IMG/VR virus record: IMGVR_UViG_2534681761_000010
DNA from: a virus
Taxonomy: Duplodnaviria; Heunggongvirae; Uroviricota; Caudoviricetes
DNA length: 44,374 bases
Reading direction: 5' to 3' (one strand)
Shown: positions 7,785 to 17,509 of the stretch, one piece after another
Position numbering within the stretch: position 1 is the first letter of the stretch
How the letters are laid out: every line of letters begins with the position of its first letter
Translations under genes and position numbers: made by a program
Notes under the pieces: model-generated
The model's input: the letters and a program-made list of their open reading frames with translations, nothing else
What the model was told of the DNA's origin: nothing
Database searches by the model: none

Positions 7785-9134
7785 TTATTCCGTTTTACAT
7801 ATCATAGTAGTCGATTGGAGAATATAGTTTCTGGGAATGTACTCTTCAAAGTGTTCGTCCTTTTTAAATACATGAACTACATTTGGGAATAATTGATAGT
7901 CAACAGGGTGTATAGCGTTTGGATTATGGTACATGTACATGGCTGTACACCATGGTTCTTGATAGTTAGGGTCACTTACATCGGCTGAAAATGGATGTGG
8001 GGCTGCATCCTGATCAGTTTTAACACCACTGACGTACACTTTGAATCCACTCGCCTCTACACCTGCAAGAATTCCCATCCGGTTAAACTTAGGTATGGTT
8101 GCTTGAGTAGTGAGTAAAACGGCAGAAACATAATTATTTTGTTCTGAGCCAAAAAAGTTCGACTTGATACTTCTATTTTCATCTGTATGTCTTTCAATAG
8201 AAATGCCTGACTCAATATCAATCCCGTACAAATAGCTATGCAAGGCTTCGCTTGAGAAGGCCATGGACATTCTTTTTGAATAATCCTGCATTGCTATGAC
8301 AAATGGTTTGTTCTTTGTATGGTTGAGTTCCCAGTAATGAACTTTCTCTGGCTCAGGGCAATGCCGGACTTTTTTTAATAAACTTCTTGCAAACTTAAAA
8401 GGCATGACATTTAGAACATGTTTTCTTAATTCATCCATCTGTTCATCGTTAATGACTTTTCTTTCAAGAGGGGCTTCTGCTTCAGCAATGCTTACAGCCT
8501 CTACAGCAATTTCCACTCCAAATTTAGATAGCAGAAAATCTGGTTGATTGTATTCTCTATTCATTTCAAAGTCGAGTTCATAAAATACAGCGTTCAAATA
8601 TAATTCAAATAACCTTGAATTAAATGCATCACTTTGAAAATCCCTTATAAATATTCCATCAGGATCTTTGAACCAGTATGCAAGTTCCTCAAGAACAATA
8701 TATGCAGGGAAATGAAGAGGGTCTTCGAGGAGCATTTTTATATAAACATTCCTTTTTTTCGCTGGGACCTTACTCAAGAATAATGAAAAAGGTTTGGTTG
8801 ATTCATCGCCTTGCATGAATGTACCATTTTGGTGCTGCGCCAGCATCTTTGGTATGTCATCGTTCAAATTATTAAGCAAGACATCCATTGAATCAAATGA
8901 AGCCAAGACGTTTATTGCTCTGAATTTTTTATCTAAATCCCGACCTAAGACTATTGCGTTAAAATCTTTATCAATATTGCATATGATTATTGTGGATAAC
9001 AATGTTATCCCATTCCCCTCATATTTAAACCAGCGTATCTCCTCAGAAAATGTCTTAAGGTAAGGTGAGCGACCGTAAAAATAAATATCAAATTGTTCTT
9101 TGCTGATCTCACTGAAGTGTAATCCTGCGTTCAT
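7785..9134 (-). CDS. Hypothetical 449-aa protein (AT-rich cargo gene; no motif recognised)
   Basis: Long ORF with AAGGA SD; AT-rich; divergent from the small recombinase gene. Confidence 0.55.
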   Translation of the reverse strand: MNAGLHFSEISKEQFDIYFYGRSPYLKTFSEEIRWFKYEGNGITLLSTIIICNIDKDFNAIVLGRDLDKKFRAINVLASFDSMDVLLNNLNDDIPKMLAQHQNGTFMQGDESTKPFSLFLSKVPAKKRNVYIKMLLEDPLHFPAYIVLEELAYWFKDPDGIFIRDFQSDAFNSRLFELYLNAVFYELDFEMNREYNQPDFLLSKFGVEIAVEAVSIAEAEAPLERKVINDEQMDELRKHVLNVMPFKFARSLLKKVRHCPEPEKVHYWELNHTKNKPFVIAMQDYSKRMSMAFSSEALHSYLYGIDIESGISIERHTDENRSIKSNFFGSEQNNYVSAVLLTTQATIPKFNRMGILAGVEASGFKVYVSGVKTDQDAAPHPFSADVSDPNYQEPWCTAMYMYHNPNAIHPVDYQLFPNVVHVFKKDEHFEEYIPRNYILQSTTMICKTE

Positions 9135-9256
9135 ACCAATTCCTTTTCAATGAATAATTGGCCTTTAGGAGTGATTCCCTTTGTCTTTAATTCAGTTCTA
9201 ACTAGTTCTTTAATCCAATAGCCTAAGCTCATCATGCAGTTGGATCATAAGACAAC

Positions 9257-9285
9257 GCCCTATAGTGCTCGTGATACTATAGGGC
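9257..9285. promoter_or_regulatory. Perfect inverted repeat GCCCTATAGT-N9-ACTATAGGGC in divergent intergenic region
   Basis: 10-bp perfect arms with 9-nt spacer, between the 449-aa gene and the recombinase gene. Confidence 0.4.
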
Positions 9286-9419
9286 ATCTGACCACACTGT
9301 TAACTGGAGTAACGACTATGGCAGGAATACAGCATAACCAAACTCACCCCAAACTTACATAGCGCTTTCTGGCCGTGAGCATAACAAGGTCCACTCCTCG
9401 CTCATAAGGGACAACCATA

Positions 9420-9450
9420 CTCAAATCTCCCACATTGCAGGAGATTTGAG
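9420..9450. promoter_or_regulatory. Perfect inverted repeat CTCAAATCTCC-N9-GGAGATTTGAG overlapping the recombinase Shine-Dalgarno
   Basis: 11-bp perfect arms; right arm contains the GGAG SD, ending 1 nt before ATG at 9452. Confidence 0.45.
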
Positions 9451-9451
9451 T

Positions 9452-10054
9452 ATGAACACGTCACCGTGGAACAAAGACCGTATCATAGGCCAAAAAAGAC
9501 CACTTCAGATATCTCATATCTGGGGTATCCGAATCCGACTTGAACTGGAAGGTAAAACTCGCGATTTAGCTCTGTTCAACATGGCCCTGGATAGTAAGCT
9601 TCGAGGCTGTGATCTGGTCAAACTCAAAGTATCTGATGTTGCATATGGTGGCTCTGTTTCAAGCAGAGCAACGGTGTTGCAACAGAAAACCGGTAGCCCT
9701 GTTCAATTTGAGATAACCAAAGGGACAAGAGAAGCTGTTGCTGCATTGATACAGCTTAGCAATTTGCACAGTAAAGACTTCTTGTTTCGGTCTAGGGTCG
9801 GAACTAACCAGCACATTTCAACCCGGCAATACAACCGAATCTTTCATGGGGGGGTAGAAAAGCTTGGTCTCGAAGATTCGCTTTACAGCACACATTCCAT
9901 GAGAAGAACAAAACCTTACCTGATCTACAAGAAAACCAAGAATCTCCGGGTGATCCAACTTCTGTTGGGTCATAAGAAACTGGAAAGCACAGTCCGTTAT
10001 CTGGGCATTGAAGTCGATGATGCGTTAGAGATTTCTGAATCGATTGAAGTCTAA
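9452..10054 (+). CDS. Small tyrosine recombinase (FimB/FimE/Xer catalytic-domain size class, about 200 aa)
   Basis: Box I-like ALDSKLRGCDLVKLKVSDV (Arg), HSMRRT (H-x-x-R), LLGHKKLESTVRYLG (His..Tyr); too short to carry the arm-binding domain of phage integrases. Confidence 0.7.
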   Translation: MNTSPWNKDRIIGQKRPLQISHIWGIRIRLELEGKTRDLALFNMALDSKLRGCDLVKLKVSDVAYGGSVSSRATVLQQKTGSPVQFEITKGTREAVAALIQLSNLHSKDFLFRSRVGTNQHISTRQYNRIFHGGVEKLGLEDSLYSTHSMRRTKPYLIYKKTKNLRVIQLLLGHKKLESTVRYLGIEVDDALEISESIEV

Positions 10055-10060
10055 GGTTGT

Positions 10061-10082
10061 CAGGGCTGCAACAGCAGCCCTG
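10061..10082 (+). terminator. Stem-loop (9-bp perfect stem CAGGGCTGC, 4-nt loop) directly after recombinase stop; no U-tract
   Basis: CAGGGCTGC-AACA-GCAGCCCTG starting 7 nt after the stop codon. Confidence 0.3.
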
Positions 10083-10413
10083 TGCCATAAGCGGAAGTAT
10101 TTAACAACTATCAGTGTTGTTCAACAGATAAAGGGGCACTTGATTTTTTCTGTTCTCAGGAAATGATAAAAGCGCGTCGGTTCAAGCCTGCTTAACGGGA
10201 GTTTGTTAATCCTGTTGCCGTGACGTTTTGACACCATTATGATGGGGAGACACTTAATGTATGAAGGTTCCGCCACTTATACCTGTCCAACAACTGCCTC
10301 GGATGTTTCTTTGTATGAATAAGTGGTAATGAGTAGTGAATCGCTAACAGTCACCCGAACAATCGGTGCCTGCAATTAATTCTATATTCTAAACGAGGGG
10401 GAGATTATTACAC

Positions 10414-11394
10414 ATGAAATTTAAGGACAAGAACCTTAAGGCTCTCGCGGAATGTATCATAGGAGATAATAAGGCATTTCTGTATCGTTCAAGCAGTCAC
10501 ATCACTGAATTTTTCCAGGACTGCGGCATGGATGTTACTCATGACGGATCCACTCGGTGGAAATGGACGGCCCAGAGGCTTGAAGAACTTCTTTATGAGC
10601 CACAGTCAAAGCCACATACTTTGCCGGAAAGGTTTGTTCATGTGCTCAGAACTTTAATGTTAAAAGAAGATGCAATGGATGACGATCCAGGAAGATTAAA
10701 GGCGCTTGAAGAACTGAACAAGCCTTTGATGCGGGAAGGCTATGAGGCATTCTATGGTGACGATCGCCTTTTGTATATACGCCATACCGATACCAAAACG
10801 GTTTCAGTCAGTAATAACCCTCATCGGCCCTTAACGCCTCACGAAGTAGAATGCAGAAGGTTACTGACCGCGTTTCTTGATACCTGCTCAGAAGATGAGT
10901 TAATAGAAGATATTCTCCTTCCTTTATTCCGGCAACTTGGTTTTCACCGGATAACAGCAGTGGGACATAAAGATAAAGCGCTGGAATACGGGAAAGACAT
11001 CTGGATGAAGTTCACACTGCCAACTCAGCATGTTCTTTATTTCGGCATTCAGGCAAAAAAAGGTAAGTTGGATGCGTCCGGTGCCAGCAAATCTACGAAT
11101 TCAAACGTGGCAGAAATCTTCAACCAGGTACTGATGATGCTTGGCCATGAAATATTTGACCCAGAAACAAATAGAAAGGTGCTGGTAGATCATGCCTTTA
11201 TCGTTGCTGGCGGAGAAATTACTAAACAGGCGAGGAACTGGCTGGGCGGGAAACTTGATGCCAGCAAAAGAAGCCAGATAATATTTATGGACCGGGAAGA
11301 CATTCTTAATTTATATACTGTAAGTAATGTACCTCTGCCAACAGGTGCTCTCATCTCTGATGATGCCGTTAAGAACGATGATATTCCTTTCTAA
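10414..11394 (+). CDS. Hypothetical 326-aa protein, possible PD-(D/E)xK-like nuclease fold
   Basis: Strong SD GAGGGGGAG; motif GKDIWMKF...YFGIQAKKGK is compatible with D...(E/Q)xK but unverified. Confidence 0.5.
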   Translation: MKFKDKNLKALAECIIGDNKAFLYRSSSHITEFFQDCGMDVTHDGSTRWKWTAQRLEELLYEPQSKPHTLPERFVHVLRTLMLKEDAMDDDPGRLKALEELNKPLMREGYEAFYGDDRLLYIRHTDTKTVSVSNNPHRPLTPHEVECRRLLTAFLDTCSEDELIEDILLPLFRQLGFHRITAVGHKDKALEYGKDIWMKFTLPTQHVLYFGIQAKKGKLDASGASKSTNSNVAEIFNQVLMMLGHEIFDPETNRKVLVDHAFIVAGGEITKQARNWLGGKLDASKRSQIIFMDREDILNLYTVSNVPLPTGALISDDAVKNDDIPF

Positions 11395-11618
11395 TCAGAA
11401 GTACGTCTTTTTCTGAAAGAATACGTGATAGGTAGCCACACCACACCTTTAGTGACCCCTTAATCTGGTAATATAACAGCCCGTATGAATGTCCGCGGCA
11501 TCGCGGGCTGAAATTTATTAAAAATACTTATTCATCAAGCTGGAGTAGTTTGCCGAGTAACTGTAAACGCCCAACTTAACCGGACCATTCACTTTTAGAT
11601 TGCTACCAGCAAACCAAC

Positions 11619-11642
11619 TTCCGTTTCTCGCTCAAAGCGGAC
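11619..11642. repeat. 24-bp palindromic element copy C (TTCCGTTTC-TCGCTC-AAAGCGGAC)
   Basis: About 20 of 24 identical to B1 by eye, same spacer TCGCTC; marks the right edge of the AT-rich island. Confidence 0.55.
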
Positions 11643-12122
11643 TAGAAGGTTAGCTTGCGTCGGACTTGGCGTATTTAAAGAAGTGCTGGTGGTAACTGGT
11701 TGTTGTGTTCCATTTCTACAAAACAAAATCACAGAAACTATACCCAATAGTTATATTGAATCAATGATGAGACAGCCTCATATTTATCAGAACTGGTGTA
11801 CGTCCAATACAGGAGGTTGTCGTGCTGGTTCTCAAATATGCGCTAGCTATTGCGGCTGTAATGGCAATTTATTGTCTTGCTATTGTTCTTACGGATCGCC
11901 TTTCTGATTGATTTTATATTGGCGAGGTGACGGGAGTTAAGTAGAATTGCTGCGGGTGCTTGAGGCTATCTGCCTCAGGCATGAACACCAAAGGCAGATA
12001 GAGAAAAGCCCCAGTTAACATTACGCGTCCTGCAAGACGTTTAACATTAATCTGAGGCTCAATCTATGAACGGCAAATCTAGGTTAGCCTCTTACGTGCC
12101 GAAAGGCAAGGAGAAGCAGGCT

Positions 12123-12278
12123 ATGAAGCAGCAAAAGGCGATGTTAATCGCCCTGATCGTCATCTGTTTAACCGTCATAATGACGGCACTGGTAACGAGG
12201 AAAGACCTCTGCGAGGTACGAATCCGAACCGGCCAGACGGAGGTCGCTGTCTTCACAGCTTACGAACCTGAGGAGTAA
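12123..12278 (+). CDS. hok: Hok/Gef-family type I toxin (51 aa)
   Basis: MKQQKAMLIALIVICLTVI.TALVTRKDLCEVRIRTGQTEVAVFTAYEPEE matches the Hok family; AAGGAG SD; in-frame upstream extension from 12066 may be mok-like. Confidence 0.8.
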   Translation: MKQQKAMLIALIVICLTVIMTALVTRKDLCEVRIRTGQTEVAVFTAYEPEE

Positions 12279-12346
12279 GAGACCAGGCGGGGGAGAATCC
12301 CTCGCCACCTCTGATGTGTCAGGCATCCTCAACGCACCCGCACTTA

Positions 12347-12372
12347 ACCCGCTTCGGCGGGTTTTTGTTTTT
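12347..12372 (+). terminator. Rho-independent terminator / hok mRNA 3' stem-loop
   Basis: ACCCGC-TTCG-GCGGGT followed by a T-run. Confidence 0.6.
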
Positions 12373-12493
12373 ATTTTCAACGCGTTTGAAGTTCTGGACG
12401 GTGCCGGAATAGAATCAAAAATACTTAAGTAGCGCGCAGGGATAAGAGGGATGGTCCCTTAAAGGGGAGAGCTAATTATCCGGAAGGATTCTG

Positions 12494-12745
12494 ATGATGA
12501 ACATCGAAGAACTGCGTAAAATTTTTTGTGAAGATGGCCTCTATGCTGTGTGCGTTGAAAATGGAAATCTTGTTAGTCATTACCGCATTATGTGTTTGCG
12601 AAAGAATGGGGCTGCGTTAATTAATTTTGTGGATGGTCGAGTGACAGACGGATTTATCTTGCGCGAAGGTGAGTTTGTCACTTCATTACAGGCACTGAAA
12701 GAGATTGGAATAAAAGCAGGCTTTTCAGCTTTTGCAGAAGAATAA
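12494..12745 (+). CDS. Small protein, Rem-like by size and position (83 aa)
   Basis: GGAAGGA SD; sits between hok and the DUF968-like gene, as rem does in the E. coli Qin prophage (recollection). Confidence 0.45.
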   Translation: MMNIEELRKIFCEDGLYAVCVENGNLVSHYRIMCLRKNGAALINFVDGRVTDGFILREGEFVTSLQALKEIGIKAGFSAFAEE

Positions 12746-15265: not shown

Positions 15266-15511
15266 TCACCTTCCTGCACTTGCTTCGTTGCGAGTTTTGA
15301 GTTCGCGTAGCAGTAGCGCCAACTCTTCTGCGTCATTTTCGTTTCTAACGCTGACTTTCCTTTTAGCGGTTCTGCCTTCAGGATCGGTGTAGGTTAGTTC
15401 AATATACGCATTCGGCTTTACCCAAACCAAGAACCTAAGCACAGCATATCTGACCGTCGCTGCGACAGCCATGAATACAGTGATGTAAAGCATAATGCTT
15501 AGGATTGACAT
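15266..15511 (-). CDS. Small membrane protein (N-terminal TM helix), second gene of cargo operon
   Basis: MSILSIMLYITVFMAVAATV TM segment; 3-nt gap to upstream gene. Confidence 0.5.
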   Translation of the reverse strand: MSILSIMLYITVFMAVAATVRYAVLRFLVWVKPNAYIELTYTDPEGRTAKRKVSVRNENDAEELALLLRELKTRNEASAGR

Positions 15512-16658: not shown

Positions 16659-16734
16659 GGCCCTTTAGCTCAGTGGTGAGAGCGAGCGACTCATAATCGC
16701 CAGGTCGCTGGTTCAAATCCAGCAAGGGCCACCA
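16659..16734 (+). tRNA. tRNA with CAU anticodon (tRNA-Ile2-like / Met)
   Basis: 76 nt; acceptor GGCCCTT/AAGGGCC, D-stem GCTC/GAGC, T-loop TTCAAAT, encoded CCA; resembles E. coli ileX as recalled. Confidence 0.8.
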
Positions 16735-16831: not shown

Positions 16832-16908
16832 GCGTTGTTAGCTCAGCCGGACAGAGCAATTGCCTTCTAAGCAATCGGTCACTGGTTCGAATCCAGTACA
16901 ACGCGCCA
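16832..16908 (+). tRNA. tRNA-Arg (anticodon UCU)
   Basis: 77 nt; acceptor GCGTTGT/ACAACGC, anticodon loop CTTCTAA, T-loop TTCGAAT, encoded CCA. Confidence 0.85.
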
Positions 16909-17083: not shown

Positions 17084-17509
17084 ATGTTTGGTATTTTCAA
17101 AAAGAAAACCCGCAAGGCCATTACCGAAGTGAAGAAGATGGAGAACCGCGACGCAGTGGAGGCGACCGTCTGGGGCGCGTATTCCATTGCATACGCTGAC
17201 GGCACCTGTGATGCGAAAGAAATCGCAGTACTGGAGAAAACCATTGCAGCACTTCCTGCCTTTGCGCCGTTCTCCGGTGAGATTGCCCAGATGAGCGCCA
17301 ATATCCGCGCCCGTTATGAAGCATCCCCGCGTTCAGCCAATGCCGAAGCCCTTCGTCAGCTGGCTGATGTCGCCGGTACTGATGATGCAGTTAATGTGCT
17401 GTGCCTGTGTCTGGATATCGCTGACCAGGATGGCATTGGTCCGGATGAAGAAGCACAGCTCAAGAAAATTGCGCAGGCGCTTCAGCTACCGCTGGAGCAG
17501 TACCTGTGA
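17084..17509 (+). CDS. Hypothetical 141-aa soluble protein, TerB-like by motif
   Basis: SD AAAGGAAAAG; two DG-x-D/E-E helix motifs (YADGTCDAKEIAVLEK and IADQDGIGPDEEAQLKK). Confidence 0.45.
   Translation: MFGIFKKKTRKAITEVKKMENRDAVEATVWGAYSIAYADGTCDAKEIAVLEKTIAALPAFAPFSGEIAQMSANIRARYEASPRSANAEALRQLADVAGTDDAVNVLCLCLDIADQDGIGPDEEAQLKKIAQALQLPLEQYL

Follow-up and report, generated by a model that had tools for sequence, protein, structure and literature searches.

In integrons, a recombinase gene stands by a special proximal site, and an exchangeable array of cassettes is joined at imperfect palindromes. The pdif modules of Acinetobacter plasmids carry resistance and toxin-antitoxin cargo, have 28-bp sites (11-6-11) and presumably rely on the XerCD enzymes of their host. 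In engineered recombinase-mediated cassette exchange (RMCE), heterospecific sites (loxP and lox2272 for Cre, FRT and F3 for Flp) recombine like with like, and a double crossover swaps the cassette between two molecules. FimB/FimE, IpuA, IpuB and IpbA/FimX of uropathogenic Escherichia coli (UPEC) invert a promoter segment between 9-bp inverted repeats. In this paper we describe a locus that recalls each of these systems. It lies in a stretch of 44,374 nucleotides (IMG/VR virus record IMGVR_UViG_2534681761_000010, Caudoviricetes; called the window below, always at its full length), which is a lambdoid, Qin/Rac-like E. coli prophage inserted beside rspB. The locus consists of a gene for a small tyrosine recombinase, several copies of a 24-bp site that comes in two kinds, A and B, and cargo genes bracketed by these sites. 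We infer that the recombinase is the dedicated enzyme of a gene-cassette system and that it is catalytically active on the A and B sites. The enzyme probably recombines A with A and B with B, so that circles carrying an A-linker-B junction would excise and insert, and a double crossover would exchange the cargoes lying from B to A between mobile elements.

The layout of the locus, a recombinase gene and an array as just described, is analogous to that of integrons. A large share of anti-phage defence among the cargo and the prediction of circular cassette intermediates recall them as well, and a 66-bp composite of an A and a B site folds in a manner similar to attC. It differs from them in its enzyme, which has 200 amino acids against about 320 for the integron integrase IntI, and in its sites, which are two 9-6-9 cores of the double-strand type with unlike spacers rather than one folded attC. 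The cassettes here are found on both sides of the recombinase gene and in either orientation, contain one to several genes and apparently bring their own signals, no common Pc promoter was found, and landing pads that lack the enzyme occur dispersed among various kinds of mobile element. The pdif modules are similar in having discrete cargo between short palindromic cores that alternate in kind or orientation, in having their breakpoints at the sites and in occurring in many plasmid contexts. The 24-bp sites are however unrelated to dif, a dedicated small recombinase is present, and the hosts also include prophages and islands. Shared arms with unlike spacers on either side of a cassette are the hallmark of RMCE, an arrangement that here is apparently natural and also forms tandem arrays. 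The recombinases of the fim switch are likewise about 200 amino acids long without a separate core-binding domain, are found in E. coli islands and use short repeats, but the present protein scores about 200 bits below the cut-offs of their profiles and its sites are direct.

Each 24-bp site is built from two inverted 9-bp arms (GTCCGCTnn and nnAGCGGAC) around a 6-bp spacer, and the spacer defines its kind, TCGCTC in A and GTGCCA or GTGCAA in B. A scan of the window gave nine strand-matches where 0.36 were expected; five strong copies fall within positions 6232-11642, and the rest of the 44 kb has none. The order in the window is B, gene, A-18 bp-B, PD-T7-1, A, recombinase, B, gene, A (Table 1; below, a site is named by its kind and first position). 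The same grammar is seen in every E. coli context that we fetched, L002-L008 among them, and in arrays of Buttiauxella, Pectobacterium, Klebsiella, Phytobacter, Erwinia, Providencia, Rahnella and Pseudidiomarina. In all these genera the spacers stay constant and the arms diverge, the pattern that a crossover region should show. The composite of A, an 18-bp linker and B occurs in 635 of the 5426 complete E. coli genomes surveyed (the set meant by 'the E. coli genomes' below), and also in arrays of other genera. As a single strand it folds into a stem, internal loop, stem and loop like those of attC (dG -34.4, z -5.2), and it does so because its arms are palindromic. Other identities for the sites were tried and rejected: host repeats of the REP/ERIC type are unlike them in sequence and the copies are confined to arrays, plain terminators do not fit the lack of T-runs in most of the palindromes or the breakpoints in the spacers, and an inversion switch is at odds with their direct orientation. 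In sequence the sites are also unrelated to dif, and the locus does not present the single 28-bp site of the dif type.

Natural recombinants at these sites were observed. In a prophage of strain STEC2017-197 (L009), PD-T7-1 alone is found between B and A, and the locus corresponds to the window with precisely two segments, 6256-7471 and 9404-11633, missing. The junction on its right side, GTCCACTCC TCGCTC AAAGCGGAC, joins the left arm and spacer of A-9389 to the right arm of A-11619, and the one on its left side joins the left arm and spacer GTGCCA of B-6232 to the sequence right of B-7448. A-9389 and A-11619 share only eight contiguous identical bases, which is too short for homologous, RecA-dependent recombination. 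Between the two prophages the PD-T7-1 cassette is 99.6% identical, compared with 89% and 94.5% for the flanking backbones. The segment 6232-7441 is in turn 99.3% identical to a segment bounded by B and A in a CP4-like island (L010 8001-9210). The simplest history would consist of two single-crossover insertions into a prophage like L009: a circle of gene, A, linker and B would have entered at its B site, and a circle of recombinase, B, gene and A at its A site.

The recombinase gene itself belongs to a portable module of 0.7 kb, found at 90-94% nucleotide identity in about 850 of the E. coli genomes, with 848 of its 870 placements chromosomal and 22 on plasmids. Its contexts are CP4-like islands next to Ag43/YeeP or YpjA, an island next to vat, a plasmid, the gap between the tail-fibre and sheath genes of a P2-like prophage, and lambdoid prophages. 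The neighbours differ with the context (dynamin-like, frameshifted reverse transcriptase, ETEC_3214, CBS, DUF4145, DUF5677 and ComEC-like genes), and homology between contexts is limited to 9390-10098 of the window, the conserved module starting at the A spacer and stopping at the B spacer. Among 23 non-redundant modules (at least 84% amino acid identity), TCGCTC is found upstream in 18 and GTGCCA downstream in 22. Their inner half-sites, ATAAGGGAC and AGCAGCCCT, are nearly constant, while the outer ones come in 16 and 18 variants of the consensus arm. In every context examined the half-sites remain with their own flank.

The same division is visible from the side of the host element. Six cargoes of the lambdoid hot spot could be compared (the window, L009, L012, L095, L098 and L100), in which the half-sites of the backbone are nearly constant and those on the cargo side change with the cargo. 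The backbone arms are GTCCGCTTT at the left B, GTCCACTTT in L098, and AAAGCGGAC at the right A; the backbone half-site of B-6232 in the window is also present in L009, L012, L095 and L100. In many other genomes the right backbone homology begins at 11628, the first spacer base of A-11619.

From these observations we propose the following mechanism. A cargo, which may comprise one gene or several, can point either way and brings its own expression signals, would lie between a left B and a right A. Strand exchange would fall in the 6-bp spacer, and since the A and B spacers differ, A would pair with A and B with B. Recombination between two A or two B sites of an array would excise a circle made of one cargo and the A-linker-B junction, which could then re-insert at any A or B site. 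Crossovers of both kinds between two replicons would swap the entire cargo, as a natural recombinase-mediated cassette exchange. Landing pads, each from B to A, would occupy fixed hot spots: in lambdoid prophages the gap between DUF977 and hokD, in P2-like phages the G-FI (Z/fun) gap, and further ones in CP4-like islands and on plasmids. Since the recombinase gene takes the place of a linker at one junction (A, recombinase, B), it would move together with an adjoining cargo as a unit of about 2.2 kb that mobilises itself, 9404-11633 being one example.

The enzyme family is much wider than E. coli. We found more than 8000 homologues (below 1e-5), whose length stays at about 200 amino acids across many genera; those of other Enterobacterales are 84-98% identical, those of Idiomarina, Cycloclasticus and Colwellia 77-84%, and those of Pseudomonas, Burkholderiales and methylotrophs 60-65%. 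Members are carried by 347 plasmids, alphaproteobacterial megaplasmids included, and by IMG/VR proviral contigs. Among isolated phages, a tblastn search of 50,697 records gave no relative above 58% identity, so that the module is seen in prophages and proviral contigs and not in cultured phages. Modules of the Pseudomonas type (about 62-64% amino acid identity) have the same anatomy, with homology between loci running from the initial base of an upstream spacer (L045 7907) to a downstream spacer beside a hairpin. Their spacers are different, and occur as the pairs GGGTCG/CGGCCA, TGGCCG/CGGCCA and TGGCCG/CGACCC. The search for sites around relatives of 60-65% identity was heuristic and noisy, and only recurring spacer pairs were taken. 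That the spacer pairs change along with the enzyme lineage supports the link between enzyme and sites. Loci with spacers of this set (TGGCCG, CGGCCA, GGGTCG and CGACCC) were seen in relatives from Pseudomonas and Vreelandella (L045 7898-7921 and 8619-8642; L056, L084, L038 and L080). In some of these the gene-flanking sites have reverse-complementary spacers (TGGCCG and CGGCCA), which would predict inversion instead of excision there.

Taken at its broadest, the proposal is of an uncharacterised cassette system that is analogous to integrons but mechanistically distinct and is widespread in Proteobacteria. A minimal recombinase and two heterospecific 24-bp sites would carry out natural RMCE and would serve as a main route for the transfer of anti-phage systems and further cargo, such as the iron-uptake operon of PAI-aspV in CFT073, between P2-like, lambdoid, island and plasmid hot spots, with enzyme lineages using orthogonal spacer pairs. 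We advance this wider claim tentatively, and would place it just short of an even chance. Defence systems turn over rapidly among fixed hot spots in prophages, satellites and islands, and recent large surveys of P2/P4 and phage hot spots invoke no dedicated recombinase to explain it. If the enzyme does act on the A and B sites, this would give the turnover a concrete mechanism, and the B..A brackets would be a signature that delimits cargo and allows new defence genes to be found by position. It would also join the fun(Z) moron of P2, lambdoid morons and the cargo of pathogenicity islands in one exchange network. A recombinase of 200 amino acids with heterospecific 24-bp sites, apparently in several natural specificity classes, would furthermore be an attractive compact tool for cassette exchange.

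Part of this system has very likely been seen before in phage P2. There, B (15335-15358) and A (17432-17455, with a decayed right arm) bracket fun(Z), so that the Z/fun cassette is cargo between conserved repeats, located between genes G and FI. In the P2-like prophage L007 this gap contains, in order, B, cargo, recombinase, cargo and A. The repeats flanking fun(Z) in P2 are very likely the same sites. According to a review, Nilsson, Karlsson and Haggard-Ljungquist (2004, Mol Biol Evol 21:1, PMID 12949155) proposed site-specific recombination at inverted repeats flanking fun. As these repeats were reported in 2004, the system is not categorically new. No hot-spot recombinase is mentioned in Rousset et al. 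(2022), in a 2026 NAR study on how P2/P4 hot spots evolve or in the iLund4u preprint, and full-text literature searches turned up nothing that describes the enzyme, the 24-bp sites or the protein accessions.

Turning to the protein, the sequence-only reading had singled out a second small recombinase apart from the phage integrase, and this is correct. The prophage integrase is a separate protein of 339 amino acids (Pfam Phage_integrase 6.5e-8), and the recombinase itself matches Pfam Phage_integrase (PF00589) at E 2e-17 over residues 35-184, its 63.9 bits being above the superfamily cut-off of 27.1. RefSeq labels the identical locus, at the same coordinates in E. coli genomes, a 'site-specific integrase' (WP_023147793.1). 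The R, H-x-x-R, H and Y motifs named in that reading are present: across 80 aligned homologues, the most distant at 60% identity, R51, K79, H148, R151, H174 and Y183 are each at least 97% conserved, so that the loss of a catalytic residue, which it had given as grounds for refutation, does not occur. An alignment with XerD extends over the catalytic half only and bears out HxxR, H and Y. In it H148, R151, H174 and Y183 match H244, R247, H270 and Y279 of XerD. R51 (LRGCDL) and K79 (QQKTG) are assigned by the likeness of these motifs to XerD and lambda Int. The description as a catalytic domain only holds in so far as 200 amino acids are too few for a core- or arm-binding domain, but residues 5-30 carry a conserved motif of their own in the same alignment (P5 W6 N7 K8 .. 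G13 Q14 K15. P17 .. I23 W24 .. R27). With dN/dS of 0.03-0.2 against its relatives, the gene is under strong purifying selection, and its product is an intact, selected second tyrosine recombinase distinct from the prophage integrase. Isolated 3' remnants of the gene, with codons 162-200 only, are seen in E. coli (H68-H70) and in IMG/VR proviral contigs (L156-L159), which suggests repeated truncation of the module near one internal point. Insertions of the IS3 and IS1 families interrupt the gene or the array in some strains (L102 10611-12526; H71, H189).

The proposed membership in the FimB/FimE or Xer class was not confirmed by the HMM search, where the scores were 19.2-54.6 bits against cut-offs of 220-335. 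The FimB/FimE-type invertase profiles NF007371 and NF007370 of NCBIfam gave 27.5 against 222 and 19.2 against 221 bits. The best sub-threshold matches were XerA (54.6 against 220) and XerC (44.7 against 335), followed by XerD (27.6 against 330) and XerS (27.2 against 267). Xer resolvases are proteins of about 300 amino acids with two domains, compared with 200 amino acids here. For the integron integrase, NF011946 gave 17.6 against 435 and TIGR02249 gave 17.2 against 265 bits, and a protein of 200 amino acids has no room for the extra segment specific to IntI. By profile score the recombinase is thus not FimB/FimE, Xer or IntI, and a PADLOC scan gave no match to it.

Several points weigh against a cassette system driven by this enzyme. 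Position and co-variation are what would tie the enzyme to its sites. The gene is found in only about 16% of the E. coli genomes, against 1408 genomes with the right backbone A site, and many B..A hot spots, those of P2, L009, L010 and L012 included, have no recombinase nearby. No recognisable A site was found in the hot-spot variants L096, L097 and L011, and neither site in L099; the two half-sites that adjoin the recombinase gene (ATAAGGGAC and AGCAGCCCT) are both degenerate. An enzyme this small, of 200 amino acids and with no core-binding domain, is unusual, and an AlphaFold2 model (from an alignment of 27 sequences, all at least 77% identical) has a mean pLDDT of 47 and a pTM of 0.38, a quality too low for judging DNA binding. 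The attC-like fold of the composite makes it possible that double-strand recombination of A with A and B with B is not the sole chemistry. Finally, with no consensus promoter in the leader and the ribosome-binding site in a stable stem, expression of the recombinase is putative.

Some of these points would suit a selfish minimal module that targets pre-existing A-B junctions, while homologous recombination between the conserved flanks, or a different enzyme, turns over the cargo and the palindromes act mainly as terminators or insulators. The gene does sit exactly in the linker position of a junction, most B..A hot spots have no gene in cis, the palindromes are found 3' of cargo genes with one annotated near a terminator in P2, and recent hot-spot studies explain turnover without naming any recombinase. 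We consider this explanation unlikely, because the breakpoints fall in the 6-bp spacer with about 8 bp of shared identity, far below what RecA needs, and because the spacer stays invariant while the arms drift, as a crossover region would. The spacer pairs moreover change together with the enzyme lineage, and most palindromes have no T-run. An inactive remnant, that is a catalytic-domain fragment of a decayed integrase, is scarcely credible: the protein is short and without N-terminal DNA-binding domains, no promoter was found and truncated copies exist elsewhere, but the length of about 200 amino acids is fixed across the more than 8000 homologues, the catalytic residues and the structured leader and trailer are conserved, and dN/dS is low.

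The sequence-only reading had favoured phase-variable or mobile control of the neighbouring genes, and had flagged the intergenic regions 9135-9451 and 10055-10413 as places to look for heterogeneity of orientation. The 24-bp elements that it named have proved to be real, and the mobile half of the suggestion fits the data; the phase-variable half is not supported, and what lies in the two intergenic regions is the ends of the recombinase module, not a switch. An invertase like FimB/FimE, flipping a promoter segment and phase-varying the neighbouring cargo, would agree with the size class, with weak matches to profiles of tyrosine-type DNA invertases (E 2e-6 and 7e-4) and with the flanking of the gene by a divergent upstream and a co-directional downstream gene. 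In L021 the array is inverted relative to the recombinase gene, and the reverse-complementary spacers of some Pseudomonas-type relatives point the same way. Such an invertase seems very improbable here. Its family profiles have cut-offs about tenfold above the observed scores, all six sites of the window are direct repeats within 5.4 kb with unlike spacers in A and B, and no promoter segment flanked by inverted sites is found in the window. Across contexts the cassettes hold the same orientation relative to the sites, and in 181 genomes the array has a single uninterrupted orientation (one alignment piece). We give equally little weight to a Xer- or Cre-like enzyme that resolves multimers or dimers of the replicon carrying it, for which the best sub-threshold profiles, the frequency of the family on plasmids (347 records) and a simple palindromic core like that of dif or loxP would speak. 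Most of the E. coli placements are chromosomal (848 of 870), an integrated prophage needs no resolution system, and each locus has several sites of two types that bracket variable cargo. Site-specific exchange of cassettes by the recombinase therefore stays our preferred explanation.

The recombinase gene is enclosed by two conserved structures. Its leader contains a hairpin with a perfect 15-bp stem (in the 60-nt module leader, dG -22.5 kcal/mol, z -6.8). In 50 of 55 non-redundant leaders across the family at least three quarters of the Shine-Dalgarno sequence are paired in the minimum-energy fold, and compensatory changes preserve the stem (ATCTCC/GGAGAT, GTCCTCC/GGAGGAC, GACTCC/GGAGTC). The trailer hairpin (dG -22, z -4.4) has a stem that covaries between genera. 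A promoter scan found no sigma-70 consensus promoter in the module, where CATACT at 9416-9421 is a possible -10 element, and a terminator scan found no canonical terminator at the 3' hairpin. The hairpins may insulate a module that has to tolerate arbitrary neighbours and keep its expression low. In IS10 and IS50, fold-back inhibition prevents the translation of transcripts that read in from outside the element, and the leader inverted repeat that pairs the ribosome-binding site is a common feature. In the present module such control is predicted from the conserved structure. The sites and their grammar, the ends of the module at the spacers, the hybrid junctions and the conservation of enzyme and hairpins are shown here, whereas catalysis by this enzyme, the formation of circles and translational control by the leader hairpin are inferred.

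The array sits between DUF977 and hok/sok, and the same gap between DUF977 and hokD contains highly variable cargo in about 4900 of the E. coli genomes, including AbiH, retron Ec67, Kiwa, SIR2, ABC-3C and QueH. The product of the first cargo gene in the window has a faint PADLOC match to PDC-S14 besides its weak nuclease match. The product of the third cargo gene matches nothing in Pfam, NCBIfam or PADLOC. This gene occurs in no more than 188 E. coli genomes, every inspected one of which carries the same array, and it may be an undescribed defence gene. In L002 (10704-16435) and in PAI-aspV of CFT073 (L101), a 5.7-kb operon for a TonB-dependent receptor and an ABC transporter lies between B and A, with the recombinase in the same array. 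The cargo is thus not limited to defence and may be a whole operon.

Table 1. Features of the window, with positions counted from its first letter.
Feature	Position	Strand	Description
Prophage integrase	172-1191	-	separate from the recombinase
DUF977	5741-6163		left neighbour of the array
Type B site, left array edge	6232-6255	+	GTCCGCTTT GTGCCA AGAGCGGAC; left arm is prophage backbone
Cargo gene 1	6293-7237	-	314 aa; weak GIY-YIG nuclease match (Pfam E 0.017)
Composite junction	7406-7471	+	A 7406-7429 (TCGCTC), 18-bp linker 7430-7447, B 7448-7471 (GTGCAA)
Cargo gene 2, PD-T7-1	7785-9134	-	449 aa; anti-phage defence protein (PADLOC PDLC04073, E 7e-157)
Recombinase-proximal A site	9389-9412	+	GTCCACTCC TCGCTC ATAAGGGAC; left arm varies with the adjoining cassette
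Leader hairpin	9416-9454	+	perfect 15-bp stem (9416-9430 / 9440-9454); pairs Shine-Dalgarno GGAG and ATG
Tyrosine recombinase	9452-10054	+	200 aa; ATG start, GGAG upstream
Trailer hairpin	10061-10082	+	9-bp, GC-rich; directly after the stop codon, abuts the B spacer
Recombinase-proximal B site	10073-10096	+	AGCAGCCCT GTGCCA TAAGCGGAA; right arm varies with the next cassette
Cargo gene 3	10414-11394	+	326 aa; no family match
Type A site, right array edge	11619-11642	+	TTCCGTTTC TCGCTC AAAGCGGAC; right arm is prophage backbone
sok	11954-12128		Rfam E 1.5e-25
ORF of hok/sok	12066-12278		
tRNA-Met (CAT)	16659-16734		upstream of the late region
tRNA-Arg (TCT)	16832-16908		upstream of the late region

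Immediately to the right of the array lies the type I toxin-antitoxin system hok/sok, and hokD is the conserved right-hand landmark of the lambdoid hot spot. An Rfam scan of 6000-12500 found sok only. Two tRNA genes of the prophage are located further downstream (Table 1).

Two further arrangements of the sites were observed outside lambdoid prophages. In the arrays of CP4-like islands (L002 16454-16477, L003 12641-12664, L005 9672-9695), a conserved but decayed B-like element, GGCCGCTTC ATGCMA TGAATGTAC, stands 18 bp beyond the terminal A and may be the site at which cargo first landed in the island backbone. In a Mu/e14-like prophage, the tail-fibre region also has an A-18-B composite downstream of pinE (L103 9001-9063), with no tyrosine recombinase within 9 kb, and this may be a fourth kind of hot spot that uses the same sites.

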